Shown: positions 9,299 through 48,203 of the stretch, in pieces | How positions within the stretch are numbered: the stretch's first letter is position 1 | Layout of the letters: every line of letters starts with the position of its first letter | Origin: Thermoanaerobaculia bacterium | GTDB lineage: Bacteria; Acidobacteriota; Thermoanaerobaculia; Multivoradales; JAHEKO01 | DNA length: 64,000 bases | Direction: 5' to 3' | Assembly: GCA_041574955.1 (NCBI GenBank) | Contig: JBFGNS010000001.1 | Span: 28,740-92,739 of the forward strand | Notes under the pieces: model-generated | What the model saw: only the letters and a program-made list of their open reading frames with translations | The model's database searches: none | Told to the model about the DNA's origin: nothing | Translations under genes and position numbers: made by a program

Positions 9299-10290
9299 CC
9301 CGGCCGGTGGGCCGCGGCGCGCGCCTGCGGCCCGTCGGCCGCGAGGAGGTGCAGGGTCACGGTGTCGCCGCACGGTACCAGCGGCCCGAAGCCGCCGGCC
9401 GGGGCGCAGTCGAGCGGCTCGCCGGCGGCGCTCCAGCAGCTGTGGATCTCGAGCAGGCGGTCGGGGCGGGCGGCGTCGCAGTAGAGCCGCACCGTGCGCG
9501 GGTAGAGGGCCGCGAGGCGCGACCGCGCGACCGTGTCACCGGCCCAGCCGTCGACGGCAGCGGTGGCGTCGGCGATCCTGGCGGCGAGCTCCAGCCCGGT
9601 GGCGAAGTAGCGGAGCGCACCCTCGTCGCCGGGCTCTGTGAAGCAGGTGCCGTGCTTCTGCCACTCGTGGTTGAGCAGCTCGCAGACGGCGCCTTCGGCG
9701 ACGCCGTCGGGAGCGCTGCCGGCCGCCGGATCGGGCCACTCGGCGGCCAGCCGGGCGCGCAGCTCCGCCGGCCAGCGGGCCACCGCCGCGGGGTCGAGAG
9801 GCAGCGCCTCGCCGCAGCACTGGGGGAAGCCGGCGGTGTAGTTGGGCCACAGGCCGTGGATCGCCAGCCGCGCGGGCGTGCCGCGGCCGCAGCGAGCCTC
9901 GCCGCGGTGGGTGAGGGTGGTGTCGTAGCCGTCGGACAGTCCGGCGCAGAAGGTCGGCAGCCAGTGCTGCGAGAGCAGCAGGTAGTCGTAGTCGGCGGCA
10001 CCCGTCTTGGCGGCGCAGGCGGCGTCGCCCTCGTCGAAGCAGACGACCGCTGGCGGCCGGGCGACCGGCGAATCGGCGCGCACGCCGCAGATGTCGACGC
10101 AGCCGGAACCGTCGGCGCGCCAGCCGCCGGGATGGTCGAAGCCGGAGTCCGGCGGGCGCTCGGCCCGTTCTGCGGCGCCACAGGCGAGCGCGGTCGCGGT
10201 GAGTGCCGCGAGAGCCGCCAGACGGCTGCGCCGCCGCCGGTCGCTGCTGCGCGCCTCGGCGCCTGGCTGCGGTGGGCGGCTCAGCGCCGT
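9295..10290 (-). CDS. secreted ribonuclease T2 family lipoprotein (start codon unresolved)
   Basis: CAS I HGLWP and CAS II HEWQKHGTC motifs; signal LAALAALTATALAC; no ATG/GTG/TTG in frame before the signal peptide. Confidence 0.7.
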   Translation of the reverse strand, partial: TALSRPPQPGAEARSSDRRRRSRLAALAALTATALACGAAERAERPPDSGFDHPGGWRADGSGCVDICGVRADSPVARPPAVVCFDEGDAACAAKTGAADYDYLLLSQHWLPTFCAGLSDGYDTTLTHRGEARCGRGTPARLAIHGLWPNYTAGFPQCCGEALPLDPAAVARWPAELRARLAAEWPDPAAGSAPDGVAEGAVCELLNHEWQKHGTCFTEPGDEGALRYFATGLELAARIADATAAVDGWAGDTVARSRLAALYPRTVRLYCDAARPDRLLEIHSCWSAAGEPLDCAPAGGFGPLVPCGDTVTLHLLAADGPQARAAAHRPG

Positions 10291-11468
10291 CGCCGCCCCT
10301 GCTCGACGATCTGGCGCAGCCTGGCCGCGGGGTCGGCCACCTTGGCGAGGAAGATCATCGCCGCGATCACCGGCGGCTTGAAGCTCGCCTGGTGGTAGGT
10401 GTGCGGGATGTAGCGCTCGAACACCGGCCGGCTGACCTCGCCGCGCTCGCAGCTCAGGCCGCTGATGTCGGCCGGCAGGCAGTGCTGGTAGAGCGCCGAG
10501 CCTTCGCGGGTCAGGCCCATCCGGTCGTCGTCGCACTCCCAGGCCACGTGCTCGGCGTTCTCGGCCAGGCAGTCACGCTCGAGCTGCTTCAAACCGTCGC
10601 GGTCGCCGGCGTGCAGCAGGTCCCGCCGCCGCTCCATCACCGCCAGCGACGCCCACGACTTGGGGTAGACGACGTCGGCATCGCGGAAGGCGTCGTCCAT
10701 CGAGTCGACCACCTCGAAGCTGCCGCCGCTGGCGGCGGCGTTGCGCCCGGCCAGCTCGACCACGTCGGGCAGCAGGTCGTAGCCCGGAGGGTGGGCGAGG
10801 GTGACCCGCATCCCGAAGCGGCTCATCAGGGCGATCACCCCCTGCGGCACCGACAGCGGCTTGCCGTAGCTCGGCGAGTAGGCCCAGCTCATCGCGATCT
10901 TCTTGCCGCGCAGCTCGTCGACGCCGCCGAAGTAGTCGGCCAGCTTGGCCAGATCGGAGAGGCTCTGGGTCGGGTGGTCGAGGTCCGACTGCAGGTTGAC
11001 CACCACCGGTCGCTGGTGGAGCAGGCCCTGGCGGTGGCAGTCGGCCACGGCGTCCCGCACCTGGCGCTGATACCGGTCGCCCTCGCCGAGATAGAGGTCG
11101 TCCCGGATGCCGATCACCTCGGCCATGAAGCTGAGCATCGCCGCGGTCTCGCGCACCGTCTCGCCGTGGGCGATCTGGGACTTCTCCTCGTCGAGGCTCT
11201 CGACCGCCAGACCGAGAGCGTCGGCGGCCGAGGCGTAGCTGAAGCGGGTGCGGGTCGACTGATCGCGGAAGATCGAGATCGCCAGACCGCTGTCGAAGAT
11301 CCGGTAGGAGACGCCTTCGCGGTGTAGCCGGTCGAGGATGCCGGCGACCAGCAGGGTGGCGCGGACGTCGTCTTCGGTCTTCTCCCAGGTGAGCAGGAAG
11401 TCCTGCTCCAGCATCGCGGGGCGCAGCCGCTCCAGGGCCTCGATGTCGTGCAGCAGGGTGTCGGTCAT
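10281..11468 (-). CDS. ygeW: knotted carbamoyltransferase YgeW family (putative oxamate carbamoyltransferase)
   Basis: STRTR carbamoyl-phosphate motif, HPTQ, SMDDAF; start MTDTLLHDIEALERL; length about 395 aa as in YgeW. Confidence 0.8.
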   Translation of the reverse strand: MTDTLLHDIEALERLRPAMLEQDFLLTWEKTEDDVRATLLVAGILDRLHREGVSYRIFDSGLAISIFRDQSTRTRFSYASAADALGLAVESLDEEKSQIAHGETVRETAAMLSFMAEVIGIRDDLYLGEGDRYQRQVRDAVADCHRQGLLHQRPVVVNLQSDLDHPTQSLSDLAKLADYFGGVDELRGKKIAMSWAYSPSYGKPLSVPQGVIALMSRFGMRVTLAHPPGYDLLPDVVELAGRNAAASGGSFEVVDSMDDAFRDADVVYPKSWASLAVMERRRDLLHAGDRDGLKQLERDCLAENAEHVAWECDDDRMGLTREGSALYQHCLPADISGLSCERGEVSRPVFERYIPHTYHQASFKPPVIAAMIFLAKVADPAARLRQIVEQGRRRR

Positions 11469-11562: not shown

Positions 11563-12519
11563 ATGATTGCCGCCGTGCAAGCGCCGCTGATCGTCATCGC
11601 CGTGGGGGGCAACTCGCTCATCCGGGACGCCCAGCACATGACGGTGCTGGACCAGTACATCGCTGCCGGCGAGACCGCCGAGCACATCGCCGACATCGTC
11701 GAGGCCGGCTTCAGGGTGCTGATCACCCACGGCAACGGCCCGCAGGTGGGCTTCATCCTGCTGCGCTCGGAGCTGGCCAAGGACAAGGTGCACCAGGTGC
11801 CGCTGGAGAGCTGCGTCGCCGACACCCAGGGAGCGATCGGCTACCAGATCGAGCAGACGCTGTCGAACGAGCTCGTCCAGCGCGGCGTCCGCCGGCAGAT
11901 CTCGGTGGTGGTGACGCAGGTGGTGGTCGACCGCGCCGATCCGGCGCTCGGCAAGCCGTCCAAGCCGATAGGCCCGTTCCTGTCGGAGGAGGAGGCCGGC
12001 CGGCGGCGGGACAAGGACGGCTGGGAGATGGTCGAGGACGCCGGCCGCGGCTGGCGGAGGGTGGTGGCCTCGCCCCGGCCGCTCGAAGTGATCGAGCTGG
12101 AAGTGATCCGCCTGCTGCTCGACGCCGGCGTCATCGTCATCGCCGCCGGCGGCGGCGGCATCCCCGTGGTGCGCGACGAGGCCGGCCGGTTGACCGGCGT
12201 GCCGGCGGTGGTCGACAAAGACGCCGCCTCGTGCCTGCTGGCCAAGAACCTGGGGGCCGAGATCCTGATGATCTCGACCGGTGTCGAAAAGGTGGCGCTC
12301 AACTACCGCAAGCCCGACCAGACCTGGATCGACCGCATGACGGTCGCCGAGGCCCGCCGCCACCTCGAGGACGGGCAGTTCGCGGCCGGCAGCATGCGGC
12401 CGAAGATCGAGGCGGCGATCGACTTTCTGGAGAGCGGCGGCGCCAAGGTCATCATCACCGAGCCTCACGTGCTGGAGGACGCGCTGTTCGGCCGCACCGG
12501 CACGCTGGTGGTGCCGTGA
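11563..12519 (+). CDS. arcC: carbamate kinase
   Basis: LIVIAVGGNSL ... VLITHGNGPQVGF signature; divergent from ygeW. Confidence 0.85.
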   Translation: MIAAVQAPLIVIAVGGNSLIRDAQHMTVLDQYIAAGETAEHIADIVEAGFRVLITHGNGPQVGFILLRSELAKDKVHQVPLESCVADTQGAIGYQIEQTLSNELVQRGVRRQISVVVTQVVVDRADPALGKPSKPIGPFLSEEEAGRRRDKDGWEMVEDAGRGWRRVVASPRPLEVIELEVIRLLLDAGVIVIAAGGGGIPVVRDEAGRLTGVPAVVDKDAASCLLAKNLGAEILMISTGVEKVALNYRKPDQTWIDRMTVAEARRHLEDGQFAAGSMRPKIEAAIDFLESGGAKVIITEPHVLEDALFGRTGTLVVP

Positions 12520-13787
12520 GCGTGGCTTCGGCCGGCGGCGACGCACTGCCGCCGGTCGGCGAGCCGGTGGCCGAGCTGGACTCTCTGACGGCGCGAGCGG
12601 CGCCGTTCCTGATGAAGCTGGCACGTGCGCTGCACACCTACGGCATGCCGTCGCACCGCCTGGAGCTGGCGCTGTCGCAGGTCTCGGCCGAGCTCGGTGT
12701 TGCCGCCCACTACCTGGTGACGCCGACCTCGATCTTCGCCTCGATCGGTTCGGCGCCGTCGGCCCGGACGTTCATCGAGCGGCTCGAGCCGGGCCAGATC
12801 GACCTCGGCAAGCAGACCGAGCTGCACGGGCTGATCGGGGCGGTCTGCCGCCGGCGGCTGACCCTGGAGGAGGCGGCGGCGGCGGTCGACGCGCTGGTCG
12901 AGCGCCCGCCCGTGCAGGGCTGGCCGGCGGTGGTGGCCAGCTTCGGGCTGGCGTCGACGGGGGCGGCGGTGTTTTTCGGCGGCGGTCGCAGCGAGCTGAT
13001 CGCGGCCGGCGCTATCGGTCTGGCCATCGGTCTGCTGGTCCGGGCGGCGGGCGGCTCGCGGCGGCTGGCGATGGTGATGCCCGGCGTGGCGGGGGTCGCC
13101 GGCGTGTTGATCGCGGCGGCTGTACAGGCGGCGCTCGGGCCGATGTTCCCGTTCATCCCCACGCTGGCCGGTCTGATCATCCTGATCCCGGGTCTCAACC
13201 TGACCATCGCGGTCAACGAGCTGGCGCACGCCCAGCTGGTGAGTGGCACCGCCCGGCTGGGCGGAGCGTTGATGGCGTTCCTGCAGATCGCCTTCGGCGT
13301 GGCGCTCGGCAAGAAGCTGGTGGGAGTGGTGGCCGGCGCCCAGCCGGTGGTCGACCCCGCGCCGCTGACGGGCTGGATGGTGCCGCTGGCGCTGGTGGTG
13401 ACGGCGGTGGCGATGACGGTGCTGTTCCGCGCCCGGCCGCGCGACCTGCCGCTCATCCTGGTGGCGGCGGGCGTTTCGTTCGGTGGCAGCCGGTTGGGCA
13501 CCGAGGCGCTCGGGCCGGAGCTCGGCGTGCTGGTGGGCGCCTGGCTGGTCGGCACGGTCGGCCACCTCGCCGGCCGCTGGCTGGATCAGCCGTCGGCGAT
13601 CGTGATCCTGCCGGGCATCCTGCTGCTGGTGCCGGGGGCGCTCGGCTTCCGCAGCCTGTCGGCGCTGATGGCGAACGACGTCGTCTCCGGCATCCAGGCC
13701 GGCTTCACCATGCTGCTGGTGGCCGCGTCGCTGGTCACCGGCCTGCTGCTGGCCAGCCTCATCGCCCGCTCGCAAGAGGCCTTCTGA
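12516..13787 (+). CDS. threonine/serine exporter family protein (ThrE; YjjP+YjjB-like fused DUF1212/DUF3815)
   Basis: GTGA overlap with carbamate kinase stop; about 10 TM segments, typical ThrE-like pattern. Confidence 0.6.
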   Translation: MSVASAGGDALPPVGEPVAELDSLTARAAPFLMKLARALHTYGMPSHRLELALSQVSAELGVAAHYLVTPTSIFASIGSAPSARTFIERLEPGQIDLGKQTELHGLIGAVCRRRLTLEEAAAAVDALVERPPVQGWPAVVASFGLASTGAAVFFGGGRSELIAAGAIGLAIGLLVRAAGGSRRLAMVMPGVAGVAGVLIAAAVQAALGPMFPFIPTLAGLIILIPGLNLTIAVNELAHAQLVSGTARLGGALMAFLQIAFGVALGKKLVGVVAGAQPVVDPAPLTGWMVPLALVVTAVAMTVLFRARPRDLPLILVAAGVSFGGSRLGTEALGPELGVLVGAWLVGTVGHLAGRWLDQPSAIVILPGILLLVPGALGFRSLSALMANDVVSGIQAGFTMLLVAASLVTGLLLASLIARSQEAF

Positions 13788-13856: not shown

Positions 13857-16196
13857 TTACCTCTCTTTGCCGGCGGCCACACGGGGAGCCAGGCGCTGCT
13901 CGAGGTCGGCGATGGCGTTGAGCACCTCCTCGGGCGTCGCCGGCGCGTTGAGGTGCGGGCTCAGCCGGTGGTCGCCGACGCTGGCCACCGCGTCCTTGAT
14001 CGCCTGGAACGCTGAGATGGCTAGCATCAGCGGCGGCTCGCCGACCGCCTTCGAGCGGTGGATGGTCGGCTCGCGGTTGCGGCCCGACGGCAGCAGCTCG
14101 ACGTGGAACTCGTCGGGCAGGTCCGAGGCGACCGGGATCTTGTAGGTCGACGGCGCGTGGGTGCCCAGCTCGCCGTCGCCGTTCCACCACAGCTCCTCCG
14201 AGGTCAGCCAGCCCATCCCCTGGATGAAGCCGCCCTCGACCTGGCCGAGGTCGATCGCCGGATTGAGCGAGCGGCCGACGTCGTGCAGGATGTCCACCCG
14301 CAGGATTCGCGTCTCGCCGGTCAGCACGTCGATGATCGCCTCGGACACCGCGGCGCCGTAGGCGAAGTAGTAGAACGGACGGCCGGTCATCGTGCGGCGG
14401 TCGTAGTGGATCTTGGGCGTGCGGTAGAAGCCGGTGGCCGATAGCGGCACGCGCGCCAGCCAGGCGCGGTGGACGAGCTCGGCGAAGGTCGCCTCGGCGT
14501 CGCCGGCCTGCACCCGGCCGTCCTCGAACCGCACCTCGTCGGCCGCCACGCCGTGCTCGCGAGCGGCGAAGTCGGCCAGCCGTCCCCGCAGCTTGTGGGC
14601 GGCGGCCAGCGCCGCCATGCCGTTGAGGTCCGATCCCGATGAGGCCGCGGTGGCCGAGGCGTTGGGCACCTTCGAGGTGTCCGATGCGGTGCAGCGGACA
14701 TCGGCGACGTCGACTCCCAGCTCGTCGGCCACCACCTGCGCCACCTTGGTGAACAGCCCCTGGCCCATCTCGGTACCGCCGTGGTTGAGCATCACCGTGC
14801 CGTCGGTGTAGAGGTGGATGAGCGCGCCGGCCTGGTTGAAGTGGGTGGCGGTGAACGAGATGCCGAACTTGACCGGGGTGAGCGCGATGCCGCGCTTGAG
14901 CAGCCGGCTGCCGGCGTTGAACCGCTCGATATCGCGCCGCCGCCGGCGGTAGTCGGAGCTCTGCTCGAGCCGCGGCACGATTTCCTCGAGCAGGTTGTCC
15001 TCGACCTTCATCCGGTAGGGGGTCTCGTCGCGCTCGCCGACGCCGTAGAAGTTGGCGCGCCGCACGTCCAGCGGATCGATCCCCAGGTGACGGGCGATCT
15101 CGTCGACCACCGTTTCGATCGCCAGCATGCCCTGTGGGCCGCCGAAGCCGCGAAAGGCCGTGTTGGAAACCGTGTGGGTCTTGCACCGGTGCGAGACGAT
15201 CGATACGTTCTCGAGGTAGTAGGCGTTGTCGGAGTGGAAGATGGCGCGGTCGTTGACCGGGCCCGAGAGATCGGCCGACATGCCGCAGTTCGACGCCAGC
15301 TCGAGCTCGAGGCCGGCGATCACGCCGCGCTCGTCGAAGCCGACGTGGTAGTCGACGCGGAAGCCGTGCCGCTTGCCGGTCATGATCATGTCGGCATCGC
15401 GGTCCAGGCGCAGCTTGACCGGCCGGCCGATGCGGTCGGCGAGCAGCGCGGCGATGGCGGCGAACAGCGCCGGCTGCGTTTCCTTGCCGCCGAAGCCACC
15501 GCCCATCCGGCGGCACTCCACCACCACGTCGTTGGCGGTGCGGGCGAGCGCGTGGGCCACCACCATCTGCACCTCGCCGGGGTGCTGGGTCGAGCTGTAG
15601 ACCAGCATCTGGCCGTCCTCGCGCGGCAACGCGAAGGCGATCTGCCCCTCGAGGTAGAACTGGTCCTGCCCACCGATCCGCAGCCGGCCGCGCAGCCGGC
15701 GGGCGGCGCCGGCGATCGCGCCCCCGGCGTCGCCGCGCACGAGCCGCACGCTCGGCAGCACAAACGACTGCCGCGCCAGGGCGGTGTCGATGTCGAGGAT
15801 GGCCGGCAGGTCGTCGTACTCGATGACCGCTCGCCGCGCCGCTCGCCGCGCCAGATCGACACCGGTGGCGGCGACCGCGAACACCGACTGGCCGACGTAC
15901 TGCACCAGCCGGTCGGCAAAGATGGGGTCGTCTTTGAGCATGCCGCCGATGTCGTTGGCGCCGGGGATGTCGGTGGCGGTCATCACCTCGACCACGCCGG
16001 GTGAGCGTCGCACCGGCTCGAGGTCGAGCGAGCGGATGCGAGCGTGCGGCCGCGCGCTGGTGCCGACGGCGGCGTGCAGGGTGCCGGCGGGTTCGGGCAG
16101 GTCGTCGGCGTAGTCGGCGCCGCCGCTGACGTGCAGGTGGGCGCTCTCGTGGGGCAGCGGCGTCCCGACGCGGCCCGGTCTGTCGTCTCGGCTCAC
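13857..16196 (-). CDS. xdhB: xanthine dehydrogenase molybdopterin-binding subunit
   Basis: Aldehyde oxidase/xanthine DH a/b hammerhead and MoCo-binding pattern (GGGFGGK); ATGA overlap with upstream xdhA. Confidence 0.85.
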   Translation of the reverse strand: MSRDDRPGRVGTPLPHESAHLHVSGGADYADDLPEPAGTLHAAVGTSARPHARIRSLDLEPVRRSPGVVEVMTATDIPGANDIGGMLKDDPIFADRLVQYVGQSVFAVAATGVDLARRAARRAVIEYDDLPAILDIDTALARQSFVLPSVRLVRGDAGGAIAGAARRLRGRLRIGGQDQFYLEGQIAFALPREDGQMLVYSSTQHPGEVQMVVAHALARTANDVVVECRRMGGGFGGKETQPALFAAIAALLADRIGRPVKLRLDRDADMIMTGKRHGFRVDYHVGFDERGVIAGLELELASNCGMSADLSGPVNDRAIFHSDNAYYLENVSIVSHRCKTHTVSNTAFRGFGGPQGMLAIETVVDEIARHLGIDPLDVRRANFYGVGERDETPYRMKVEDNLLEEIVPRLEQSSDYRRRRRDIERFNAGSRLLKRGIALTPVKFGISFTATHFNQAGALIHLYTDGTVMLNHGGTEMGQGLFTKVAQVVADELGVDVADVRCTASDTSKVPNASATAASSGSDLNGMAALAAAHKLRGRLADFAAREHGVAADEVRFEDGRVQAGDAEATFAELVHRAWLARVPLSATGFYRTPKIHYDRRTMTGRPFYYFAYGAAVSEAIIDVLTGETRILRVDILHDVGRSLNPAIDLGQVEGGFIQGMGWLTSEELWWNGDGELGTHAPSTYKIPVASDLPDEFHVELLPSGRNREPTIHRSKAVGEPPLMLAISAFQAIKDAVASVGDHRLSPHLNAPATPEEVLNAIADLEQRLAPRVAAGKER

Positions 16197-17755
16197 GGCT
16201 GGGCTCCGTATTCGAGTATCCGGGTGGCGCCGTCGAGGGCACTACCGTCGGGGCCGGCAGTCTCGTAGAAGAACTTGCGCAGCAGGTTGCGCGCCACCTG
16301 CCGGCGGTAGCCGCGGCTGGCCCGCATGTCGCTGATCGGTGTGAAGTCGGCGTCGAGCGCCTCCAGGCCGGCGGCGACCGCCTCCTCGCTCCAGCGAGCG
16401 CCCTCGATCGCCTGCTCGCACCGCCGCGCTCGCTCGGGCGTCGCCGACATGCCGCCGAAACCGATGCGGACGTCGCGCGCCCGGCCGTCCTCGAGCCGCA
16501 GGCAGAACGCCGCGCACACCGCCGAGATGTCCTGGTCGAACCGCTTCGAGATCTTGTAGGCGCGGAACAGACGGTCCGGTGGGGTGAGCGGTATACGCAC
16601 CCGCTCGAGCAACTCGCCCGGCTCGAGGGCGGTCCGGCGGTAGCCGAGGTAGAACTCGTCGAGCGGCAGCTCGCGGCGTCGCTCGCCGCGAACCAGCACC
16701 ACGCTGGCGTCGAGCGCCAGCAGCGCCGGCATCGAGTCGCCGATCGGCGAGCCGTTGACGACGTTGCCGCCGAGGGTCGCGGCGTTGCGGATCGGCGGCG
16801 AGGCGAAGCGCCGTAGCAGCTCGCCGAAGTCGGGGAACCGCTCGGCCAGCTCCCGGTAGGTGTCGGTCAGGGTGACGGCGGCGCCGATCTCGAGGTGGCC
16901 GTCGGTCACCTCCAGCCGGCGCAGCTCCTCGACGTTGCCGACGTAGATCGTCTGCTCGATCTGCCGCAGCTCCTTGGTGATCCACAGGCCGACGTCGGTG
17001 CAGCCCGCCACCAGCCGGGCGTCGGGATGCCGCTCGGCCAGCTCGGTCAGCTCGGCCAGCCGGGTGGGCGCCCAGTAGCGGTGCTCGCCGCCGCCCGCCG
17101 CCGGGGCGGCGAGCTCGAGGCACCGGCGCCGGCCGAGGCCGCGCAGCCGCTCGACCAGCTCGCGCTCGTCGGCGCCGGGCTGTCCGCCCGGATCTGCCGG
17201 CGCGTGCAGCCAGTGGCCGTTGGCGCTCCGCCCGCGCTCGTACATCGCCCGCGCGGCGTCGAGAATCGGCCGGTAGCCGGTGCAGCGGCACAGGTTGCCG
17301 GCCAGCACGTCGCGGATACGCCGGCGGTCGGGATCGCGCTCGGACTTGTAGAGCGCGAACAGCGACATGACGAAGCCCGGCGTGCAGAAGCCGCACTGCG
17401 AGCCGTGGCAGTCGACCATCGCCCGCTGCACCGGATGCAGCTCGCCGTCGGGCGAGACCAGCGACTCGACGGTCACCAGGAGCTTGCCGTCGAGCGTCGG
17501 CAGCAGCTGGATGCAGGAGTTGAGGGCGCGGAAGCGGAGGCGGTCGCCGTCGAGCTCTCCAACCACCACCGTGCAGGCGCCGCAGTCGCCCTCGGCGCAG
17601 CCCTCCTTGGTGCCGGTGCGGCGCAGGTGCTCGCGCAGGTAGGTCAGGACCGTGGTGTTCGGGTCGAGGCCCGAGACCGCGTGGAGCTCGCCGTCGAGCA
17701 GAAAACGGACCGTGCCGCCGGGCTCGTCGGCTTCGGCCTGATTCGCCGCCGTCAT
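16193..17755 (-). CDS. xdhA: xanthine dehydrogenase small subunit ([2Fe-2S] + FAD-binding)
   Basis: CAEGDCGACTV and CGFCTPG/CRCTGY [2Fe-2S] motifs, CO-dehydrogenase flavoprotein domain; GGAGGAGG SD before ATG 17755. Confidence 0.85.
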   Translation of the reverse strand: MTAANQAEADEPGGTVRFLLDGELHAVSGLDPNTTVLTYLREHLRRTGTKEGCAEGDCGACTVVVGELDGDRLRFRALNSCIQLLPTLDGKLLVTVESLVSPDGELHPVQRAMVDCHGSQCGFCTPGFVMSLFALYKSERDPDRRRIRDVLAGNLCRCTGYRPILDAARAMYERGRSANGHWLHAPADPGGQPGADERELVERLRGLGRRRCLELAAPAAGGGEHRYWAPTRLAELTELAERHPDARLVAGCTDVGLWITKELRQIEQTIYVGNVEELRRLEVTDGHLEIGAAVTLTDTYRELAERFPDFGELLRRFASPPIRNAATLGGNVVNGSPIGDSMPALLALDASVVLVRGERRRELPLDEFYLGYRRTALEPGELLERVRIPLTPPDRLFRAYKISKRFDQDISAVCAAFCLRLEDGRARDVRIGFGGMSATPERARRCEQAIEGARWSEEAVAAGLEALDADFTPISDMRASRGYRRQVARNLLRKFFYETAGPDGSALDGATRILEYGAQP

Positions 17756-17845
17756 GGTGTCGCCTCCTCCGGACAGCACGCCAGGGAGTCGAGAAGGCTG
17801 TCGGGAGTATAGCGCCAGCCGGCGCGCTCCGGCTGCCCGCCTCGA

Positions 17846-19153
17846 CTAGCCGCCGGTGCGGACGGTGTAGAAGACGATCAGCAACGCGCCCAGCAGGTAC
17901 ATCAGCGGGTGGATGTCGCGGAAGCGGCCGCGCAGCAGCTTGATCGCCACCCAGGAGACGATGCCGAAGCTGATGCCGTTGGCGATCGAGTAGGTGAACG
18001 GCATGGTCGCGGCGGTCAGGAAGGCCGGCACCGCCTCGTCGATCCGCGACCAGTCGATCTCGCGCGCGCCCTGCATCATCAGCGCACCGACCACGATCAG
18101 CGCCGGCGCGGTGGCGAAGGCGGGCACCGCGGTGAACAGCGGCGTCAGGAACAGCGACAGCAGGAACAGCAATCCGACCACCACCGCGGTCAGGCCGGTG
18201 CGACCGCCCTCCTCGACGCCGGTGGCCGACTCGACGTAGCTGGTGACCGTGCTGGTGCCCACCGCCGCCCCGACCATGGTGCCGACGGCGTCGGCCGCGA
18301 ACGCCCGCTCGGAGCGCGGCAGCTCGCCCCGCTTGTCGACGAAGCCGGCCAGCCGGCCGACGCCGATCAGCGTACCGGCGGTGTCGAAGATGTCGACGAA
18401 CAGGAACGCCAGCACCACCAGCAGCAGCTTGCCGGTCATCAGGCCGGAGAAGTCGAGAGCGAAGAGCGTCTCCTCGGGCAGCCCCGGCCAGCTGACGAGC
18501 TGGACGGGGGGCGCGATGATCCCGGCTCCCCAGGCGATGCCGGTAACGCCCAGGATGCCGATAAGGATCGCACCCCTTACGCGCGCCGACATCAGCACCG
18601 CCATCACCACCAGCCCGGCGAGCGCCAGCAGGGCGGTCGCGGCATGCACGTCGCCCAGGGTCACCAGCGTCGCCGGGTGGTCGACCACCAGGCCGGCGTT
18701 CTGGAAGCCGATGATCGCCAGGAACAGGCCGATGCCGCTCATGGTGGCGATCTTGATCGACTGCGGGATGGCGCGCAGCAGGGCGGTGCGCACCCCGGTC
18801 AGCGCCAGCACCAGGAACAGCGCCCCCTCGACGAAGACAGCCGCCAGCGCCACCTGCCAGGAGATCCCCATGCCGAGCACGACGCCGAAGGTGAAGTAGG
18901 CGTTCAGACCCATGCCGGGCGCCAGCGCGAACGGGTAGTTGGCCAGCAGGCCCATCGCCAGGGTGGCGGCGGCCGAGGCCAGAGCGGTGGCGACCGCCAC
19001 GTCGCTCGCCGGCAGGCCGGCCTGCGACAGGATCTGCGGGTTGACGAACAGGATGTAGGACATGGTGAGGAAGGTCACCACGCCCGCCCGCACCTCGGTG
19101 GCCACCGAGCTGCCCTGGGCCTCGATCCGGAACCACCGTTCCAGCACGCTCAC
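17846..19153 (-). CDS. pbuG: NCS2 family purine permease (AzgA/PbuG-like adenine/guanine/hypoxanthine permease)
   Basis: VLERWFRIEAQGSSVATEVRAGVVTFLTMSYILFVNPQIL typical AzgA N-terminus; GTG start 19153 (or 19147) inferred. Confidence 0.75.
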   Translation of the reverse strand: MSVLERWFRIEAQGSSVATEVRAGVVTFLTMSYILFVNPQILSQAGLPASDVAVATALASAAATLAMGLLANYPFALAPGMGLNAYFTFGVVLGMGISWQVALAAVFVEGALFLVLALTGVRTALLRAIPQSIKIATMSGIGLFLAIIGFQNAGLVVDHPATLVTLGDVHAATALLALAGLVVMAVLMSARVRGAILIGILGVTGIAWGAGIIAPPVQLVSWPGLPEETLFALDFSGLMTGKLLLVVLAFLFVDIFDTAGTLIGVGRLAGFVDKRGELPRSERAFAADAVGTMVGAAVGTSTVTSYVESATGVEEGGRTGLTAVVVGLLFLLSLFLTPLFTAVPAFATAPALIVVGALMMQGAREIDWSRIDEAVPAFLTAATMPFTYSIANGISFGIVSWVAIKLLRGRFRDIHPLMYLLGALLIVFYTVRTGG

Positions 19154-19159
19154 GGAGTG

Positions 19160-19175
19160 GCGATTATACCTCCGG
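19160..19175 (-). promoter_or_regulatory. candidate -10 box (TATAAT) plus GGAGG immediately upstream of pbuG-like start
   Basis: GGAGGTATAATCGCCACTCCGTG on minus strand; TATAAT 10 nt before GTG suggests near-leaderless transcript. Confidence 0.3.
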
Positions 19176-19213
19176 CGCCGGGCGTCGGCGGTGAGGGGGC
19201 TTGAGGCTTCGGG

Positions 19214-19290
19214 CCGGGTGCGCTGGGCGGTCGGGGCCCGGGGCTGCGCTCCAAAGGCGAGGGTGATGTCGCTCCGCCCCGGGCCCCCGC
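19214..19290. repeat. about 75-bp conserved element, copy A (inverted relative to copy B at 23152-23225)
   Basis: ctgcgctccaa(a/t)ggcgagggtgatgtcgctccgccc(c)gggcccccgc shared with reverse complement of 23152-23225; about 85% identity over about 75 bp. Confidence 0.8.
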
Positions 19291-19452
19291 GCGGTTGGCG
19301 CACCCTCCGGGGGGGTGGCTGAGGAGCGGCGGTCGCTTCGAGGGGCAGCGAGATCCGGGGCTACCTCCTGCTATGCTGACTTCGTTCCCTCAGCGATGGC
19401 CCGCGCTCCCCGGGCGAGTGCCTCGTCAGGCTGGAGGCGGGCGGCCGAGCCG

Positions 19453-21507
19453 ATGCCCGATCTGATCCCGTATCCCTTCCCGGCACTGGTCGAGCACATG
19501 CTCGACGGGCTCGAGCGGCAGGGCGAGATCTTCCATCTGCCGGCGGGCAAGTTCGTGCGCGGTCTGGACGGGCTGGACCTGTCGGTCGACTTCCACGGCC
19601 ACCCGGTGTCGAGCCCGCTGGGGCCCGCCGCCGGGCCGCAGACCCAGATGGCCCAGAACATCGTGCTCTCCTGGCTCGGCGGCTGCCGCGTGATGGAGCT
19701 CAAAACGGTCCAGATCCTCGACGAGCTGCACATCCCGCGGCCGTGCATCGATGTCCACCAGGTCGGCCTGAACGCCGAGTGGTCGCAGGAGCTCAAGCTC
19801 GAGGAGTCGCTCGAGGAGTACGTCAAGGGCGCCATGCTGGTCGAGATGCTGCGCTCGGGCGAGGTGGCGCCGGCGGCGGGGTTCGGCTCGGTGGTCTACG
19901 ACATGAGCGTCGGCTACGACCTGCACGGCATCCGCAGCCGGCGGGTGCTCGAGTTCATCGACGCCATGCGCGACGCGACGCCGATCGTCGACCGGCTGCG
20001 TCGCCAGATCCCCGACCGCTTCAAGCGGCTGCGCGACCTCGACTACCCGACGCGGCTGTCGGACAGCATCACCCTGAGCACCTTCCACGGCTGTCCGCCG
20101 GACGAGATCGAGAAGATCATGGAGTTTCTGTTGCGCGACCTCGGGGTGCACGCCATCGTCAAGTTCAACCCGATGCTGCTCGGACCCGAGCGGGCACGCT
20201 GGCTGCTGCACGACACCCTGGGCTACGACGATCTGGCGATCCCGGACTCGGCCTTCGAGCGCGACACCACGTGGCCGCAGGCGGTGGGTATCGTCGAGCG
20301 GCTGGGCGAGCTGGCCGCCGAGCTCGGGCTCGGCTTCGGCGCCAAGTTCAGCAACACCATGATCGTCGAGAACCGGCGCGGCTTCCTGGCCCCGGGGGTG
20401 GAGGAGGTCTACCTCTCCGGCCAGCCGCTGCACGTCCTGGCGGTGCATCTGGTGCGCCGCTTCCGCCGGGTGTTCGGCGACCGCTACCCGATCTCGTTCG
20501 CCGCCGGCGTCGACCGCGGCAACTTTCCCGACGCCGTGGCGCTCGGGCTGGTGCCGATCACCGTCTGCACCGACCTGCTGCGCAAGGGCGGCTACGGCCG
20601 GCTGCGCGGCTACCACTCCGAGCTGGCGCGGCGCATGCGCGAGCTGGGGGCCGCCAGCGTCGAGCAGTTCACACTGCTGGCCTACGGCGAGGCGGAGCCG
20701 GCGCTGGCCGCGCTCGATCCGACGCCGTCCGGCGAGCGGCTCGAGCGCTGCCGTCGTGCGCTGGCCGAGGGCGGCGATCTGCGGCAGGCGGCGGGCGACG
20801 AGCTGTTCGAGCGCTGGGTCTCGGCCGCGCGCCTGCGCAACACCGAGCGGTATGTCGACCAGGCCACCGCCGATCCACGCTACACGCGTGTCGGCGTCGA
20901 CCCGCCGCCCCGCAAGATCGGCAGCCACCTGGAGCTGTTCGACTGCGTGACCTGCGACATCTGCGTGCCGGTGTGCCCCAACGACGCCAACTTCACCTTC
21001 GGCAGCGAGCAGCGCCAGATCGCGGTGGCGCGCGCCGTGCCCGACGGCGGTGGCTGGCGGTGGCACCACGGCGAGCCGCTCGAGCTCGAGCGCCGCCACC
21101 AGATCGGCAACTTCTACGACTTCTGCAACGACTGCGGTAACTGCGACATCTTCTGCCCCGAGGACGGCGGCCCGTACGTCATCAAGCCGCGCTTCTTCGG
21201 CCACGAGGAGGCCTGGCGGCAGTTCCGGCATCTCGACGGTTTCGTGCTGGCGCGCGGCGGCGACGGCGACCGGGTGCTCGGCCGGTTCGGCGGGCGTGAG
21301 TTCCGGCTCGAGACGGCGGGTGGGAGGATACGCTACGCGGGGCCCGGCTTCGCCGTCGAGTTCGACGCCGGCTCGCCCGAGGAGACCTTGCGGGGCGAAG
21401 CGCGTGGCGAGGTCGACCTGACCTACTGCCACATCATGGACTACCTCAGGCGTTCCATCCTGGACTCGCCACAGGTAACCTACGTCGCCAGCCTGGCCGC
21501 GCGCTAG
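19453..21507 (+). CDS. Fe-S oxidoreductase with DHODH/DPD-like TIM-barrel region and 2x[4Fe-4S] ferredoxin motifs (possibly YgfK-N-terminal-like)
   Basis: FHGCPPDE...FNPML (DHODH-like), CVTCDICVPVCPND and CNDCGNCDIFCPEDGGP cluster motifs; embedded in the purine cluster. Confidence 0.5.
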   Translation: MPDLIPYPFPALVEHMLDGLERQGEIFHLPAGKFVRGLDGLDLSVDFHGHPVSSPLGPAAGPQTQMAQNIVLSWLGGCRVMELKTVQILDELHIPRPCIDVHQVGLNAEWSQELKLEESLEEYVKGAMLVEMLRSGEVAPAAGFGSVVYDMSVGYDLHGIRSRRVLEFIDAMRDATPIVDRLRRQIPDRFKRLRDLDYPTRLSDSITLSTFHGCPPDEIEKIMEFLLRDLGVHAIVKFNPMLLGPERARWLLHDTLGYDDLAIPDSAFERDTTWPQAVGIVERLGELAAELGLGFGAKFSNTMIVENRRGFLAPGVEEVYLSGQPLHVLAVHLVRRFRRVFGDRYPISFAAGVDRGNFPDAVALGLVPITVCTDLLRKGGYGRLRGYHSELARRMRELGAASVEQFTLLAYGEAEPALAALDPTPSGERLERCRRALAEGGDLRQAAGDELFERWVSAARLRNTERYVDQATADPRYTRVGVDPPPRKIGSHLELFDCVTCDICVPVCPNDANFTFGSEQRQIAVARAVPDGGGWRWHHGEPLELERRHQIGNFYDFCNDCGNCDIFCPEDGGPYVIKPRFFGHEEAWRQFRHLDGFVLARGGDGDRVLGRFGGREFRLETAGGRIRYAGPGFAVEFDAGSPEETLRGEARGEVDLTYCHIMDYLRRSILDSPQVTYVASLAAR

Positions 21508-21578
21508 GCGCCTTGCGAGGACGGGCCGGCAGGCGGGCGCACGGCGCCCGGCGCGGCCGCGAAAGGAGACTAGCGTTG

Positions 21579-23096
21579 GACGACAAGATCCGGGAGCTGG
21601 CCGACGGCTCGACAGCGCTGGCGGTCGAGATCCTGCGCGAGGCGATCCGGCTGCCGGCCGACTACGTCGAGCGCGCGCTGGAGGACGGCGGCGATCCGGC
21701 TTGCGGCCTGTCGAACCACGAGAAGCCACGGCTCGAGTACCTGCGCCGCACGATCGTCGAGATCGGCGCCGTCGACCGGCCCGAGGACGTCGGCTACGAC
21801 GCATTCGGCAACCTGCGCTGGACGGTCGAGGACCCGGCCGACGGCGTTGCCGATTCCGACAAGACGGTGGTCTACCTCGACGGCCATACCGACACCGTCA
21901 AGGCGCTGCGTCCACGGTGGCACGAGACGATCGGCGGCGGCATCGACGCTTACGACGGGCTGACGGACCCGCGGTGCGTGGACCGCGAGTTCCTGCGCCG
22001 TGAGCTCGGCTACCTGCCGCCGGACGACGAGTGGCGGCACCTGGTGTGGGGACGCGGCGCGGCCGACCAGCTCGCCGGCGTCGTCTGCCAGATGCTGGCC
22101 ACCCGGCTGCTGCGCGAGCTGCGGGCCGAAGGCGCGCTGGCCGGGGTGGCGGTGCGCAGCTACGCCACCGTCGCCGAGGAGGACAACGACGGTGGCGGGC
22201 CGATGCACCTGATGCGCCGCCAGCTGCCGGCGGCGCCGCCGGCGCTGCTGCCCGACGTCTTCCTGCTGAGCGAGCCCACCGGGTCGGCGAGCGAGGGCGC
22301 GCTGGGGATCTACCGCGGGCAGCGCGGTCGGATGCAGATCGAGGTCGAGGTCACCGGCAAGAGCTGCCACGGCTCGATGCCGTGGGAGGGGCGCAACCCG
22401 CTCGAGCACGGGGCGTCGATCCTGGCCGAGGCCGCCGCCTACGCCGCCGGCGACGGCTTCGCGCGCGACGAGTTCCTCGGGCCCGGTACCCGTACCGCCA
22501 GCTGGGCGGTGCTGGAGACCCCGTCCGACTGCGCGGTGCCCGAGCGGTTCACCTTCCGCTTCGACCGCCGGTTGACCACCGGCGAGGATCCCGAGCGGGC
22601 GCTGGCCGACGTCGAGCAGCTGCCGGCGGTCGAGCGGGCGCGGCAGGACGGCCTGGTGGTGGAGGTGCGGGCGCCGCTCTACGACGAGCCCACCTGGTGC
22701 GGCCAGCGACCCGGCAACCCGCAGATCTACCCCGGCTGGGTGACCCCCGCCGAGCACCCGGCGATCGCGGCGGCGCTCGAGACCTACCGCCGGGTGGTGA
22801 CCCCCGGCGTGGCGCGCGACGCGCCGGCCGGTGGCATGCGGCGCGAGCCGCGGCTGTCACGCTGGACCTTCTCGACCGACGGCGTCGGCGTGCCGGTGGA
22901 GCAGGGCTCGCTGGCGGTGCCGGAGGAGAAGAACTGGGTGACGGCCGGCCGTTTCACCCATCCCGCGATGTTCGGCTTCGGTCCCGGCATCGAGCAGAAC
23001 ACGCACAAGATCGGCGAGTGCGTCGACGGCCGCGAGCTGGCGCCGGTGATCGCGTTCTACGCGCGCTATCCGAGCCTGTACCGGGGGTGGAGGTAG
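21579..23096 (+). CDS. M20 family peptidase (YgeY-like)
   Basis: LDGHTDTVK (HxDTV M20 motif); TTG start with AAAGGAG 7 nt upstream; cluster context. Confidence 0.65.
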   Translation, partial: DDKIRELADGSTALAVEILREAIRLPADYVERALEDGGDPACGLSNHEKPRLEYLRRTIVEIGAVDRPEDVGYDAFGNLRWTVEDPADGVADSDKTVVYLDGHTDTVKALRPRWHETIGGGIDAYDGLTDPRCVDREFLRRELGYLPPDDEWRHLVWGRGAADQLAGVVCQMLATRLLRELRAEGALAGVAVRSYATVAEEDNDGGGPMHLMRRQLPAAPPALLPDVFLLSEPTGSASEGALGIYRGQRGRMQIEVEVTGKSCHGSMPWEGRNPLEHGASILAEAAAYAAGDGFARDEFLGPGTRTASWAVLETPSDCAVPERFTFRFDRRLTTGEDPERALADVEQLPAVERARQDGLVVEVRAPLYDEPTWCGQRPGNPQIYPGWVTPAEHPAIAAALETYRRVVTPGVARDAPAGGMRREPRLSRWTFSTDGVGVPVEQGSLAVPEEKNWVTAGRFTHPAMFGFGPGIEQNTHKIGECVDGRELAPVIAFYARYPSLYRGWR

Positions 23097-23385: not shown

Positions 23386-23982
23386 TCATGGCAGCGGGAT
23401 CTGGCCGGCGGGCTTGACTGCCTGGTAGCGCGCCGACAGGTCGGCGTATATCGCCTCGATGCGGCGGACCTTCTCGCGCAGCGGATCGGCCCTGTCGCCG
23501 GGCAGGGCGGCGATCTCGGCGCGCAGGTCGTGTGCCTGCCAGTACGCATTGCGCCGCCGGTAGCGGCCCTCCGGCAGGTCGAACACCTGGGCCAGGATGC
23601 GCAGGTCGTGCGGGATGGCGAAGCGGTCTCGCGAGTCCTCGTAGCCGAACAGGTAGTGGAAGTTGTCGAAGCCGGACCAGGTGATGGCCGAAAGGCACAG
23701 CGAGCACGGCTCGTGCGAGGCGAGAAAGAGGCAGTCGCCGGGAGCCGGACGCTCGGCCGCGGGCAGCCGCCACAGCCGGCGCACCGCCTCCACCTCGCCG
23801 TGCCACAGCGGGCAGTCGGTCTCCTGGTTGGTGGCGGCGATCACCAGCGACAGGTCGCTCTTGCGCAGCACCGCGGCGCCGAAGATCTTGTTGCCGGCGT
23901 CGACACCCTCGACGGTCAGCGGCACGACGTCGTGCTCTAGGACCTCGAGCAGGCGGGCGATCCGCTCGCTGTCCGTCGGCAT
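23386..23982 (-). CDS. CDA-fold nucleotide/nucleobase deaminase (candidate guanine deaminase)
   Basis: HGEVEA (H-x-E) and PCSLC (PCxxC) zinc-binding motifs of cytidine/deoxycytidylate deaminase superfamily; 198 aa; start MPTDSERIARL. Confidence 0.65.
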   Translation of the reverse strand: MPTDSERIARLLEVLEHDVVPLTVEGVDAGNKIFGAAVLRKSDLSLVIAATNQETDCPLWHGEVEAVRRLWRLPAAERPAPGDCLFLASHEPCSLCLSAITWSGFDNFHYLFGYEDSRDRFAIPHDLRILAQVFDLPEGRYRRRNAYWQAHDLRAEIAALPGDRADPLREKVRRIEAIYADLSARYQAVKPAGQIPLP

Positions 23983-23986: not shown

Positions 23987-25210
23987 TCAGCCGGGCGCCA
24001 GCGCCGCCATCCGCCGCCACAGGCGCGGCGCCTGGCGCTCGGCCTCGGCGCGGATCTCCTCGAGGTCGGCGGTGAGCAGCCGGCGGTCTGCCACCACCAC
24101 CCGGCCGTCGACCACCACGTGCCGCGCGCCGCCGTCGTCGGCCGCCACCGCGTCGGCCAGCGCACCCGGCGCCAGCGGCGCCAGCTGGCCGCCCAGCCGC
24201 TCGCCCGCCAGCAGGTGGCCGCCGGCCAGGCGTGGCGCCACCTCCGCCGCCGGCTGACCGTGGTCGGCGGCCTCGTCGAACAGCGCCGCCGCCTCCTCGT
24301 CGAGCCGCGACGGATAGCCGTCGGTGCCGAGAGCCACCCGCGGGCTGGCGGCGAGGGCGGCGGCGTATCCCACCCGGTTGCCGCGGTTCGAGCGCGGGTT
24401 GTGGACGAACCACAGGCCGCGCTCGGCCGCCAGCTCGACCTGCTCGCGGCTGCAATGCACGCCGTGCGCCAGGATCGAGCCGGGCGGCAGCGCGCCGAGC
24501 TGGAGCAGCCGCTCGAGCGGGCCGGCCCAGCCGCGCTCGCGGGCGTCCGCGACGTCGGCGCCGTCCTCGGCGACGTGAACGTGCTGCACCGTGCCGAGCT
24601 CGCGACACAGCTCGCCGGCCTCGCGCACGGTGTCGTCGGACACCGTGAACGAGGCGTGCAGGCCGACCACACCACGCACCAGCGGCCGCCGGTTGCCGGT
24701 GATGAAGCGGCGGCACTCGGCCAGCCCGCGGCGGGCCTCCGCGCGGCCGCCGTTGCGTTCGGTGGCGCCGAAGGTGAGCACCGCCCGGATCCCCACCTCC
24801 TGGCAGGCGTCGGCCAGGATGTCGAGCGAGCCCTCGATGAGCGCCGGCGACTCGTGGTGGTCGACCAGGGTGGTGACGCCGGCGAGCAGCGACTCGGCGG
24901 CGTAGTAGCGCGCCGAGGCGCGCAAGCTGGCCTCGTCGAGCGCCCGGTCGAGGCGCCACCAGACCCGCTCGAGGATCTCGAGGAAGCTGCGGGGCGGCGG
25001 CTCGGCGGCGGGCATGCCGAGCGGAGCCAGGCCGCTGTAGATGTGGGTGTGGGCGTTGACGCCGCCGGGGACGATGCGGCAGCCGCCGCAGTCGAGCTCG
25101 CCGGCGGCACCGTGCGCCGCGCCGAACGCCGTGACCCGACCGCCGGCCGCGGTCAGCACCGCGCCGTCGCGGTCGGGACCGAGCACCAGCGCCGCCGAAC
25201 CGGCCGCCAT
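23987..25210 (-). CDS. ssnA: SsnA-like amidohydrolase (metal-dependent hydrolase)
   Basis: [18 protein letters not shown], amidohydrolase fold pattern; start [11 protein letters not shown]; 4-bp gap to deaminase. Confidence 0.65.
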
Positions 25211-25212: not shown

Positions 25213-27837
<2,625 letters not shown>

Positions 27838-28180
27838 CTGGAACCTCCTGGCTGGCCGGGGACAGGCCCGGCGATGGCTACCGGCTCGACCGTGCGGCCG
27901 GAGCATGGTGGCTGCCGGGGGTCGGCGGCCCTGCTTCGGAGCTCCGGGGTCGCCCCGTGCGAGCAGCGGCAAAAAGGACGCATTGATTCTATCAGGTGGC
28001 GGGCCGAGGCCGCCCGCGGCGAGTCAAACCGCGCCGCTTCAGGAGGTTACGCCGAGGGGCGGAATCCGTCTCGCGGATCGGCTACAATCCGGGCGTCTCA
28101 AGACCATCGCTTTCAGCGGGGGCGCCGGAGTCGCCGGGTCGGTCGCGCCGGTGCAGTTCCGCAGGCTGAAGGGAGGCGCC

Positions 28181-29704
28181 ATGTCCGAAGCAGGCTCGTC
28201 GACCACCGGTCACGTGCAGCCGATCTACGCGATCGAAGACCGCCCGCCGCCGGGTCGCGCCTTCGTTCTCGGCGCGCAGCACGTGCTGACGATGTTCGGC
28301 GCGACGGTCAGCGTGCCGCTGCTGTTCGGTCCGGTGATGGGGATGAGCGCGGCCGAGACCGCGCGGCTGATCTCGGCGGTGATGCTGTGCTCCGGACTGG
28401 CGACGCTGGTCCAGACCACCATCGGCTCGCGGCTGCCGATCGTGCAGGGCGTGTCGTTCTCGTTCCTGGCCGCCTTCTTCCTGATCATCAGCGAGGTCGG
28501 CCAGGAGGCGGCGGCGGCGGGAGTGGCGGTCGGGCCGCTGGCGATGCAGTACATCGCCGGCGCGATCATCGCCGGCTCGCTGATCGAGATCCTGATCGGC
28601 TTCAGCGGGCTGGTCGGGGTGCTGCGCAAGGCGCTGTCGCCGGTGGTCATCGGACCGGTCATCATGCTGATCGGCCTTGCGCTGTTCCAGCACGGCGCGC
28701 CCAAGGCCGGCACCCACTGGCCGATCTCGAGCCTGACCATCGTGCTGATCGTCGTCTTCTCGCTGGTGCTGGCCCGCAAGCACAGGTTCTTCAGGCTGTT
28801 CCCGATCCTCACCGCGGTGATCGCGGTGACCACGGTCTGTTTCGTGCTCACAAAGACCGGCGCGTTCCCGGCCGGGCACCCCTCCCACGTCAGCCTGGAG
28901 GCGGTCGAGCAGTCGAGCTGGGTGCGGCTGTCGCCCGGCGAGCTGTTCTTCCCGTGGGGCGCGCCGAAGTTCAAGCTGGGGTTCTTCCTCGCCATCCTGG
29001 CCGCCTACCTGGCGTCGATGATCGAGTCGATCGGCGACTATCACGCCGCTTCGTACATGGCGGGCGGCGGCGACCCGACGCCCCGCCAGCTCAACCGGGG
29101 GATCGGCTCGGAGGGCATCGGCTGCCTGCTGACCGGCGTGTTCGGCGGCTTCGCCTCGACCTCCTACTCCGAGAACATCGGCCTGATCGGCCTCACCAAG
29201 GTGGGCTCGCGCTGGGTGGTCCAGGTGGGAGCTCTGCTGCTGGTTGCGCTCGGTATCTTCGGCAAGTTCGGCGGCTTCGCCGCCGCCATCCCCGGCCCGG
29301 TGGTGGGCGGGCTGTACTGCGCGCTGTTCGGCCTGATCGCGGCGATCGGGGTCCAGCAGCTGGCCAAGGCGGACCTGTCGAGCGACCGCAACCTGTTCAT
29401 CGCCGGCTTCTCGCTGTTCATGGGCCTGTCGGTGCCCGCCTACTTCGCCGCCCGCGCCAGCGCCGACCTGCTGGGACCTGGGCAGACCCTGGCGATGTAC
29501 ACGCCGAGCGCCGAGAGCCTGCTGGCGAGCCTGCCGGCGACCCTCGGCGGGGTGCTCACCTCGATCGGCTCGACCGGCATGGCGGTGGCCGCGGTCTTCG
29601 GCATCCTGCTCGACAACCTGATACCGGGCAGCCCGGAGGAGCGCGGTCTGGGGCCCAGCACGCTGGTGCCCGAGGGCGGCGACATCGGGGTGGGGGGGGA
29701 GTGA
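28181..29704 (+). CDS. NCS2 nucleobase:cation symporter (xanthine/uracil/urate permease)
   Basis: QHVLTMFGATVSVPLL signature; GGGAGG SD before ATG 28181. Confidence 0.8.
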   Translation: MSEAGSSTTGHVQPIYAIEDRPPPGRAFVLGAQHVLTMFGATVSVPLLFGPVMGMSAAETARLISAVMLCSGLATLVQTTIGSRLPIVQGVSFSFLAAFFLIISEVGQEAAAAGVAVGPLAMQYIAGAIIAGSLIEILIGFSGLVGVLRKALSPVVIGPVIMLIGLALFQHGAPKAGTHWPISSLTIVLIVVFSLVLARKHRFFRLFPILTAVIAVTTVCFVLTKTGAFPAGHPSHVSLEAVEQSSWVRLSPGELFFPWGAPKFKLGFFLAILAAYLASMIESIGDYHAASYMAGGGDPTPRQLNRGIGSEGIGCLLTGVFGGFASTSYSENIGLIGLTKVGSRWVVQVGALLLVALGIFGKFGGFAAAIPGPVVGGLYCALFGLIAAIGVQQLAKADLSSDRNLFIAGFSLFMGLSVPAYFAARASADLLGPGQTLAMYTPSAESLLASLPATLGGVLTSIGSTGMAVAAVFGILLDNLIPGSPEERGLGPSTLVPEGGDIGVGGE

Positions 29705-48104: not shown

Positions 48105-48203
48105 GGCGGCTGCCGGCAGAATAGCAGGCAACCGCGCCGGCCGGCGCCGCCGCGTTCACGGCCGCGCCGGCCTCGGGCTGCAGCCGAGAGAGCTGCCGAC
48201 CGG

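Follow-up and report, generated by a model that had tools for sequence, protein, structure and literature searches.

The reductive urate pathway, described so far as a trait of gut anaerobes, was worked out in 2025, when two studies characterised it in E. coli and Clostridium (bioRxiv 10.1101/2025.04.24.650524; PMC12507026). Urate is converted into 2,8-dioxopurine by a homologue of xanthine dehydrogenase (XDH), i. e. XdhD or the Clostridial XdhAC, referred to as "DOPDH" (bioRxiv 10.1101/2025.04.24.650524; PMC12507026). Then, YgfK ("DOPOR") reduces 2,8-dioxopurine (yanthine) with reduced nicotinamide adenine dinucleotide (phosphate) (NAD(P)H), whereby flavin mononucleotide (FMN) forms the substrate site and flavin adenine dinucleotide (FAD) serves NAD(P)H, before SsnA, HyuA, YgeW/YqeA, YgeY and YgeX lead on to pyruvate (bioRxiv 10.1101/2025.04.24.650524; PMC12507026). 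SsnA pulls the unfavourable YgfK equilibrium forward (PMC12507026). Instead of YgfK, C. difficile employs UacX, a PF01180 enzyme without FAD domain that resembles the ferredoxin-dependent PydAc and was assayed with reduced methyl viologen (PMC12507026); the likewise FAD-less PydAc uses ferredoxin (PMC7332683). A YgfK devoid of the FAD/NAD(P)H module is not mentioned in either of the two pathway studies (bioRxiv 10.1101/2025.04.24.650524; PMC12507026). Here, we describe a gene for such a protein in a 64,000-nucleotide stretch of contig JBFGNS010000001.1 from a Thermoanaerobaculia bacterium (positions 28,740 to 92,739; hereafter the window). Its product, termed short YgfK in the following, most likely reduces 2,8-dioxopurine with an external, probably ferredoxin-type, reductant. 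The direct grounds for this assignment are homology, architecture, conservation and gene neighbourhood, from which substrate, cofactors, proton donor and electron donor are inferred.

The gene and the parts of its product are arranged as follows:

19453..21507 (+): short YgfK-type reductase gene, 684 residues plus stop
19453..20667 (+): N-terminal barrel resembling dihydroorotate dehydrogenase (DHODH) and dihydropyrimidine dehydrogenase (DPD), with predicted FMN; residues 1–405, homologous to YgfK 1–405
20668..20934 (+): conserved helical linker, residues ~406–494, no YgfK match detected
20935..21165 (+): 2x[4Fe-4S] ferredoxin-type domain, residues 495–571, homologous to YgfK 904–955
21166..21504 (+): C-terminal beta-rich domain, residues 572–684, the first half of which aligns with the YgfK tail to residue 995

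The open reading frame (ORF) spans 19315–21507 (+), and translation from the ATG at 19453 affords 684 amino acids, so that the 685 given in the original prediction is correct for codons including the stop and one too many for residues. In favour of this start, 35 homologues share the MxxLxPYPF N-terminus and align from there. An identical 684-residue protein has been called in NCBI assembly GCA_041608635.1, and the GC content at the three codon positions (0.72/0.48/0.93) is as in genuine genes of the window, which has an overall GC content of 72%.

A kinship to YgfK, previously raised as a possibility, is borne out by several comparisons. The YgfK model TIGR03315 matches residues 6–404 with its positions 6–406 of 1012 (E 1e-112), BLASTP aligns residues 1–391 with E. 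coli K-12 YgfK 1–405 at 39% identity (E 6e-83) and residues 500–583 with YgfK 904–963 at 35% identity, and hhalign relates the barrel to that of YgfK with a probability of 100%. Yet, the TIGR03315 score of 377.1 bits stays far below the curated equivalog cut-off of 835.3. The earlier statement that the protein is not confidently assignable to a characterised family has nevertheless been overtaken, as the barrel clearly belongs with a family characterised in 2025, even if the equivalog cut-off is missed (377 vs 835 bits). The difference resides in the middle of the protein. Pfam places Fer4_20 at residues 453–532 and Pyr_redox_2 at residues 552–839 of E. coli YgfK, which together form the internal GltD-like FAD/NAD(P)H module, whereas neither Fer4_20 nor any Pyr_redox family matches the short YgfK; the only Pfam matches of the latter are 4Fe-4S dicluster families at residues 495–571. 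The proposed absence of a GltD-like half is thus confirmed. Its place is occupied by the conserved helical linker of ~85 residues.

In contrast, the ~115 residues that follow the second cluster motif are no novelty. When turned into a profile, the last 285 residues align with YgfK 904–922 and 927–995, and the roughly 100 residues formerly regarded as "extra" match the C-terminal tail of YgfK (927–995, E 1e-12). By homology, the ferredoxin domain and at least the first half of the beta domain are therefore YgfK's own C-terminus rather than additions. The idea of a truncated YgfK was accordingly right as to the relationship and wrong as to the kind of loss: judged from sequence, the protein is a YgfK without the internal Fer4_20 and FAD/NAD(P)H module, and not a C-terminal truncation. 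What it retains of the YgfK hallmarks are the N-terminal barrel, the C-terminal 2x[4Fe-4S] domain with tail, and a neighbourhood with SsnA and an XdhD/selenium-type (Se-type) XDH; the clustering with YgeW and YgeY is shared as well. It differs in the missing module, in its sub-cut-off score, in its position in a separate clade and in that both of its ferredoxin motifs are canonical CxxCxxCxxxCP motifs.

The motifs pointed out in the original prediction are all found in the translation. FHGCPP corresponds to residues 211–216 (20083–20100), and the two CxxCxxCxxxCP motifs are CVTCDICVPVCP (residues 498–509, 20944–20979) and CNDCGNCDIFCP (residues 558–569, 21124–21159), both within the Pfam dicluster domain. 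Further barrel motifs are ELKT (82–85), RPCID (96–100), KFNP (237–240) and FSNT (299–302). Among 36 homologues, the eight motif cysteines as well as C98 and C214 are invariant. Moreover, conservation reaches at least 90% at 65 barrel positions in 45 short as well as in 52 long forms, including K84, C98, N107, H212, C214, K237, N239, K298 and N301, and F211 (M in the other class) is the sole position that discriminates between the classes. This degree of conservation across both classes argues for the same chemistry.

Sequence and fold together confirm the DHODH/DPD-like barrel. An AlphaFold2 model built on 36 sequences reached a mean predicted local distance difference test (pLDDT) of 81.9 and a predicted template modelling score (pTM) of 0.86. 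With this model, Foldseek retrieved pig DPD from the Protein Data Bank (PDB) as first match (E 5e-9, alignments of up to ~590 columns) and class-2 DHODH next. On the sequence level, phmmer aligned residues 282–404 with M. tuberculosis DHODH (GAKFSNT over GIVATNT), with weak matches to DHODH chains (E 0.005), while a profile search (A1) against PDB sequences gave no matches. Neither PF01180 (DHO_dh, E <= 1) nor PF00296 (luciferase family) was matched in the Pfam scan. Pig DPD and E. coli PreA-PreT share the barrel-plus-ferredoxin layout and a cysteine-bearing active-site segment with the short YgfK. However, identity is only ~15%, the GltD-like half precedes the barrel in DPD, and the substrate of the short YgfK would be a purine and not a pyrimidine.

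UacX of C. difficile and PydAc of C. chromiireducens come closer in architecture, since they likewise combine an FMN barrel with a C-terminal 2x[4Fe-4S] domain and dispense with the NAD(P)H/FAD module. UacX is, in addition, proposed for the very step considered here, and the donor of UacX and PydAc is ferredoxin or viologen. Given these precedents, the FAD-less architecture comes as no surprise. The short YgfK nevertheless is distinct from both. While it has the barrel followed by 2x[4Fe-4S] without FAD domain, as is typical of PydAc, UacX and PreA, it lacks their PF01180 match, and its barrel derives from the YgfK lineage. Furthermore, it carries the extra C-terminal beta domain, and it occurs mainly in environmental Gram-negative phyla and not in Clostridia.

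The short form is by no means confined to the bacterium studied here. More than 7000 proteins match it at E <= 1e-10, and the best 120 protein clusters all comprise about 670–740 residues. A scan of one genome per species recovered 592 relatives, of which the best 80 loci were kept; all of these 80 encode the short form (670–740 residues). They stem from Acidobacteriota, Myxococcota, Planctomycetota, Gemmatimonadota, Elusimicrobiota, Chloroflexota, Verrucomicrobiota and Bacteroidota as well as from Alpha- and Betaproteobacteria, including the isolates Propionivibrio dicarboxylicus DSM 5885, Pleomorphomonas carboxyditropha and Rhodoplanes sp. The closest relatives are encoded in metagenome-assembled genomes (MAGs) of Acidobacteriota (73–77% identity). 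An exhaustive search of 50%-identity representatives yielded 584 clusters at E <= 1e-30, which comprise short (~590–760 residues) and long (~840–1220 residues) proteins. When the barrels of 45 short and 52 long forms were arranged by neighbour joining, they fell into two clades with few exceptions: P0166, which has the long architecture, is found inside the short clade, and a few short sequences that may be fragments reside in the long clade. The separation of the clades indicates that the short form has long existed as a lineage of its own and did not arise by a recent truncation; to the extent that sequence comparison can tell, it is an old, stable and widespread subfamily of the YgfK type. 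One of its members, P0164 (1046 residues), carries a C-terminally fused domain of the dihydrodipicolinate synthase (DHDPS) family, i. e. of the pyruvate-lyase type.

The genomic surroundings link this subfamily to urate degradation. Neighbours were counted by tblastn with genes of the window and of E. coli against the 80 loci, 56 of which have at least 10 kb of flanking sequence; this targeted search was relied on, as single-linkage clustering of the neighbourhood ORFs was noisy owing to long antisense ORFs in high-GC DNA that merged clusters. SsnA and the Se-type XDH are encoded near the short YgfK in 35/56 and 34/56 loci, respectively, followed by YgeW (18/56), YgeY (16/56), carbamate kinase (13/56) and HyuA (8/56), and at least two pathway genes are present in 36/56. 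Within the 24 loci that harbour a strong orthologue of the Se-type XDH, the XDH gene is adjoined by ssnA in 18 and by the short YgfK gene in 10. Such an association with SsnA and the Se-type XDH is what would be expected of a 2,8-dioxopurine reductase, and a non-purine role does not fit it. A clean assignment to a non-purine enzyme family was looked for and did not emerge, and overall the original prediction has held up in its main points. The protein had been proposed from the window alone as the best candidate for the difficult ring reduction, and this proposal has gained weight, as YgfK has now been characterised as 2,8-dioxopurine reductase and the short form clusters with SsnA and the Se-type XDH across phyla. 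Other recurrent neighbours are a pyridoxal phosphate-dependent (PALP) enzyme of ~500 residues in 34 loci and a CN_hydrolase in 14, which probably replace downstream steps.

In the window itself, the short YgfK gene is embedded in the following cluster:

10281..11468 (−): YgeW knotted carbamoyltransferase (605 bits, cut-off 453)
11563..12519 (+): carbamate kinase (YqeA-like)
~12522–13787 (+): ThrE-like membrane protein of ~420 residues, directly downstream of the carbamate kinase gene; recognised by eye, no Pfam/NCBIfam match
13857..16196 (−): XdhB, molybdenum (Mo) subunit of a classical xanthine dehydrogenase (1260 bits)
16193..17779 (−): XdhA, small subunit of xanthine dehydrogenase with [2Fe-2S] and FAD
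17846..19153 (−): transporter of the xanthine/uracil permease family, divergent from the short YgfK gene
21576..23096 (+): YgeY-like M20 hydrolase, below the equivalog cut-off (181 vs 321 bits)
23386..23982 (−): deaminase-like protein with cytidine deaminase (CDA) fold, 198 residues (PF00383, E 3e-7; no NCBIfam match)
23987..25210 (−): SsnA-like amidohydrolase (286 bits, below the cut-off of 444)
25213..27972 (−): fused [2Fe-2S] and molybdenum cofactor enzyme, Se-type XDH (TIGR03311, 912 bits vs cut-off 830); likely start ATG at 27906
28181..29704 (+): second transporter of the xanthine/uracil permease family

The Se-type XDH in the window comes without an FAD subunit, and a search for YgfM hit nothing but the FAD domain of XdhA. 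The CDA-fold protein may be a small guanine deaminase-type enzyme that feeds the pathway. Tblastn (E <= 1e-3) detected no GltD-like gene and no gene for HyuA, YgeX, YqeB, YqeC or MocA in the 64 kb, and neither the recurrent PALP enzyme nor the CN_hydrolase was found there (E <= 1e-3). The short YgfK is the only product of a window ORF with a canonical CxxCxxCxxxCP motif.

Based on these observations, a plausible route can be formulated. The adjacent FAD-less Se-type XDH would generate 2,8-dioxopurine from urate. A reduced external carrier may then pass electrons to the two [4Fe-4S] clusters (residues 495–571) and from there to the FMN in the barrel, which would reduce the C4=C5 bond of 2,8-dioxopurine in a reductive dearomatisation. 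As proton donor, C214 in FHGCPP could serve, or C98 on the flexible loop 91–104, reminiscent of Cys671 of DPD. By opening the ring hydrolytically, the SsnA-like amidohydrolase would draw the product onward, as SsnA reportedly does for YgfK.

Without the NAD(P)H module, the enzyme has to draw on a reductant from outside, and a dependence on NAD(P)H is unlikely. By analogy to PydAc and UacX, and in view of the fact that both reductive enzymes of the cluster are without flavin/NAD(P)H modules, the donor most likely is a ferredoxin-type carrier of low potential. In P. dicarboxylicus DSM 5885 (L028, 13652–21867), the FAD-less enzymes might be supplied with electrons by the products of three genes directly after the HyuA gene, namely a 63-residue 2x[4Fe-4S] ferredoxin, a GltD/PyrK-like protein (Fer4_20, Pyr_redox_2 and DHODB_Fe-S_bind) and a 1662-residue protein resembling pyruvate:ferredoxin oxidoreductase (PFOR). 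Since pyruvate is the end product of the pathway, this arrangement suggests a loop from pyruvate via ferredoxin to the reductase in this one organism. In the neighbourhoods of the 80 loci, no separate canonical ferredoxin ORF was found except in this locus.

Several points weigh against a ferredoxin-driven reduction of 2,8-dioxopurine by the short YgfK. The pyruvate loop is suggested by a single, anecdotal example, and none of the searched pathway genes occurs in 15/56 loci. As far as the window shows, the pathway is incomplete in the bacterium studied here, as HyuA and YgeX are missing. Binding of FMN and of the clusters is predicted from motifs and fold, and the regions of low confidence in the AlphaFold2 model, which are restricted to residues 91–104 and the two cluster-binding loops, include those that would hold the clusters. 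Finally, a TonB-dependent receptor (45498–48131, −) and the small subunit of a class I ribonucleotide reductase (57953–59515, +) indicate a Gram-negative, probably O2-using host. Such a bacterium is probably not a strict anaerobe, which fits less easily with a ferredoxin-driven and oxygen-sensitive route.

The main rival explanation likewise starts from the missing module. DPD-type enzymes occur both fused, as in pig DPD, and split, as in E. coli PreT/PreA. Hence, the short YgfK could be the PreA-like half of a two-subunit enzyme that becomes NAD(P)H-dependent, and equivalent to full-length YgfK, once a GltD/PreT-like NAD(P)H:FAD/Fe-S subunit from another place in the genome docks onto it. A module of precisely this kind is built into long YgfK, and the position of the long P0166 within the short clade implies that the module has been gained or lost. 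The separately encoded partner that had been asked for in the original prediction was looked for in all neighbourhoods: two of the 80 loci (L028 and L080) have a GltD-like gene at a distance of up to 10 kb. The partner is, however, missing from the other 78 neighbourhoods and from the whole window, even though other pathway genes are tightly clustered. Moreover, the linked Se-type XDH has lost its FAD subunit as well, the gene for which adjoins it in only 1/24 loci, and this points to a shared donor other than NAD(P)H. A split, NAD(P)H-dependent enzyme is considered rather unlikely.

Clearly less probable is that the short YgfK acts on a different N-heterocycle, such as xanthine, urate, another oxopurine or a pyrimidine, or that it has an oxidative role. 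The separation of short and long clades at ~40% identity would allow for such a change in function, as would the loci without recognised pathway neighbours and, in the window, the adjacent classical XdhAB with two purine permeases. Yet, short and long forms have the candidate active-site residues in common, a single position tells them apart, and the commonest neighbours, SsnA and the Se-type XDH, catalyse the steps that directly follow and precede that of YgfK, respectively. That the gene is a decayed or mis-assembled ygfK fragment, or a glutamate synthase fragment, without a function of its own, as might be read from source names such as "glutamate synthase" and "putative selenate reductase" and from the score below the TIGR03315 cut-off, is scarcely credible in view of the intact frame, the normal codon bias, the conserved linker and tail and the hundreds of full-length short homologues with invariant cysteines in many phyla, and these conservation data effectively refute a pseudogene or truncation. 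Nor does the protein match the FMN domain of glutamate synthase (Glu_synthase, PF01645) or a GltD-type subunit.

If the short YgfK indeed is a 2,8-dioxopurine reductase, the reductive urate pathway has a wider reach than assumed. In the published neighbourhood survey, a protein counted as the reductase only if it belonged to IPR017701, PF01180 or PF00296 (PMC12507026). Surveys for IPR017701 and PF01180 have probably missed the short form, whose score does not reach the TIGR03315 cut-off and which lacks a PF01180 match. The short form would thus represent a widespread, uncatalogued and FAD-less subfamily of predicted YgfK-type 2,8-dioxopurine reductases. Tentatively, one may go further and regard it as a fourth, uncatalogued class of 2,8-dioxopurine reductases beside YgfK, UacX and the proposed F420 enzyme, which together with the FAD-less Se-type XDH would render the urate pathway independent of NAD(P)H and widespread among Acidobacteriota, Myxococcota, Planctomycetota, Chloroflexota and Proteobacteria of soil and water, some of which are unlikely to be strict anaerobes; this broader proposal is a possibility and not the expected outcome. 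If it is true, electrons might be recycled via ferredoxin from pyruvate through PFOR, as hinted at by the Propionivibrio locus, or from the oxidation of xanthine. Once the short form is recognised, the pathway would reach far beyond gut anaerobes into many environmental phyla, and a marker would be at hand for proteins that are now annotated as "glutamate synthase" or "selenate reductase". At the same time, its recognition would sharpen the question of what reduces a FAD-less Se-type XDH and a FAD-less reductase.

In this context, Chloroflexota are reported to possess neither YgfK nor UacX and to rely on an F420 enzyme (PMC12507026). In two Chloroflexota MAGs among our loci (L050, 8596–11950; L057, 8378–11770), the short YgfK gene is located immediately downstream of ssnA, and no F420 luciferase-like gene was found in the gaps checked of these two loci.

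As a minor observation on the window, no Rfam family, for example a purine riboswitch, was detected in 9000–31000. Between the divergent permease and short YgfK genes, the 300-bp intergenic region (19153–19453) contains an imperfect inverted repeat (19216–19243 / 19278–19305), the arms of which are 71% complementary overall and 88% complementary in their inner parts.

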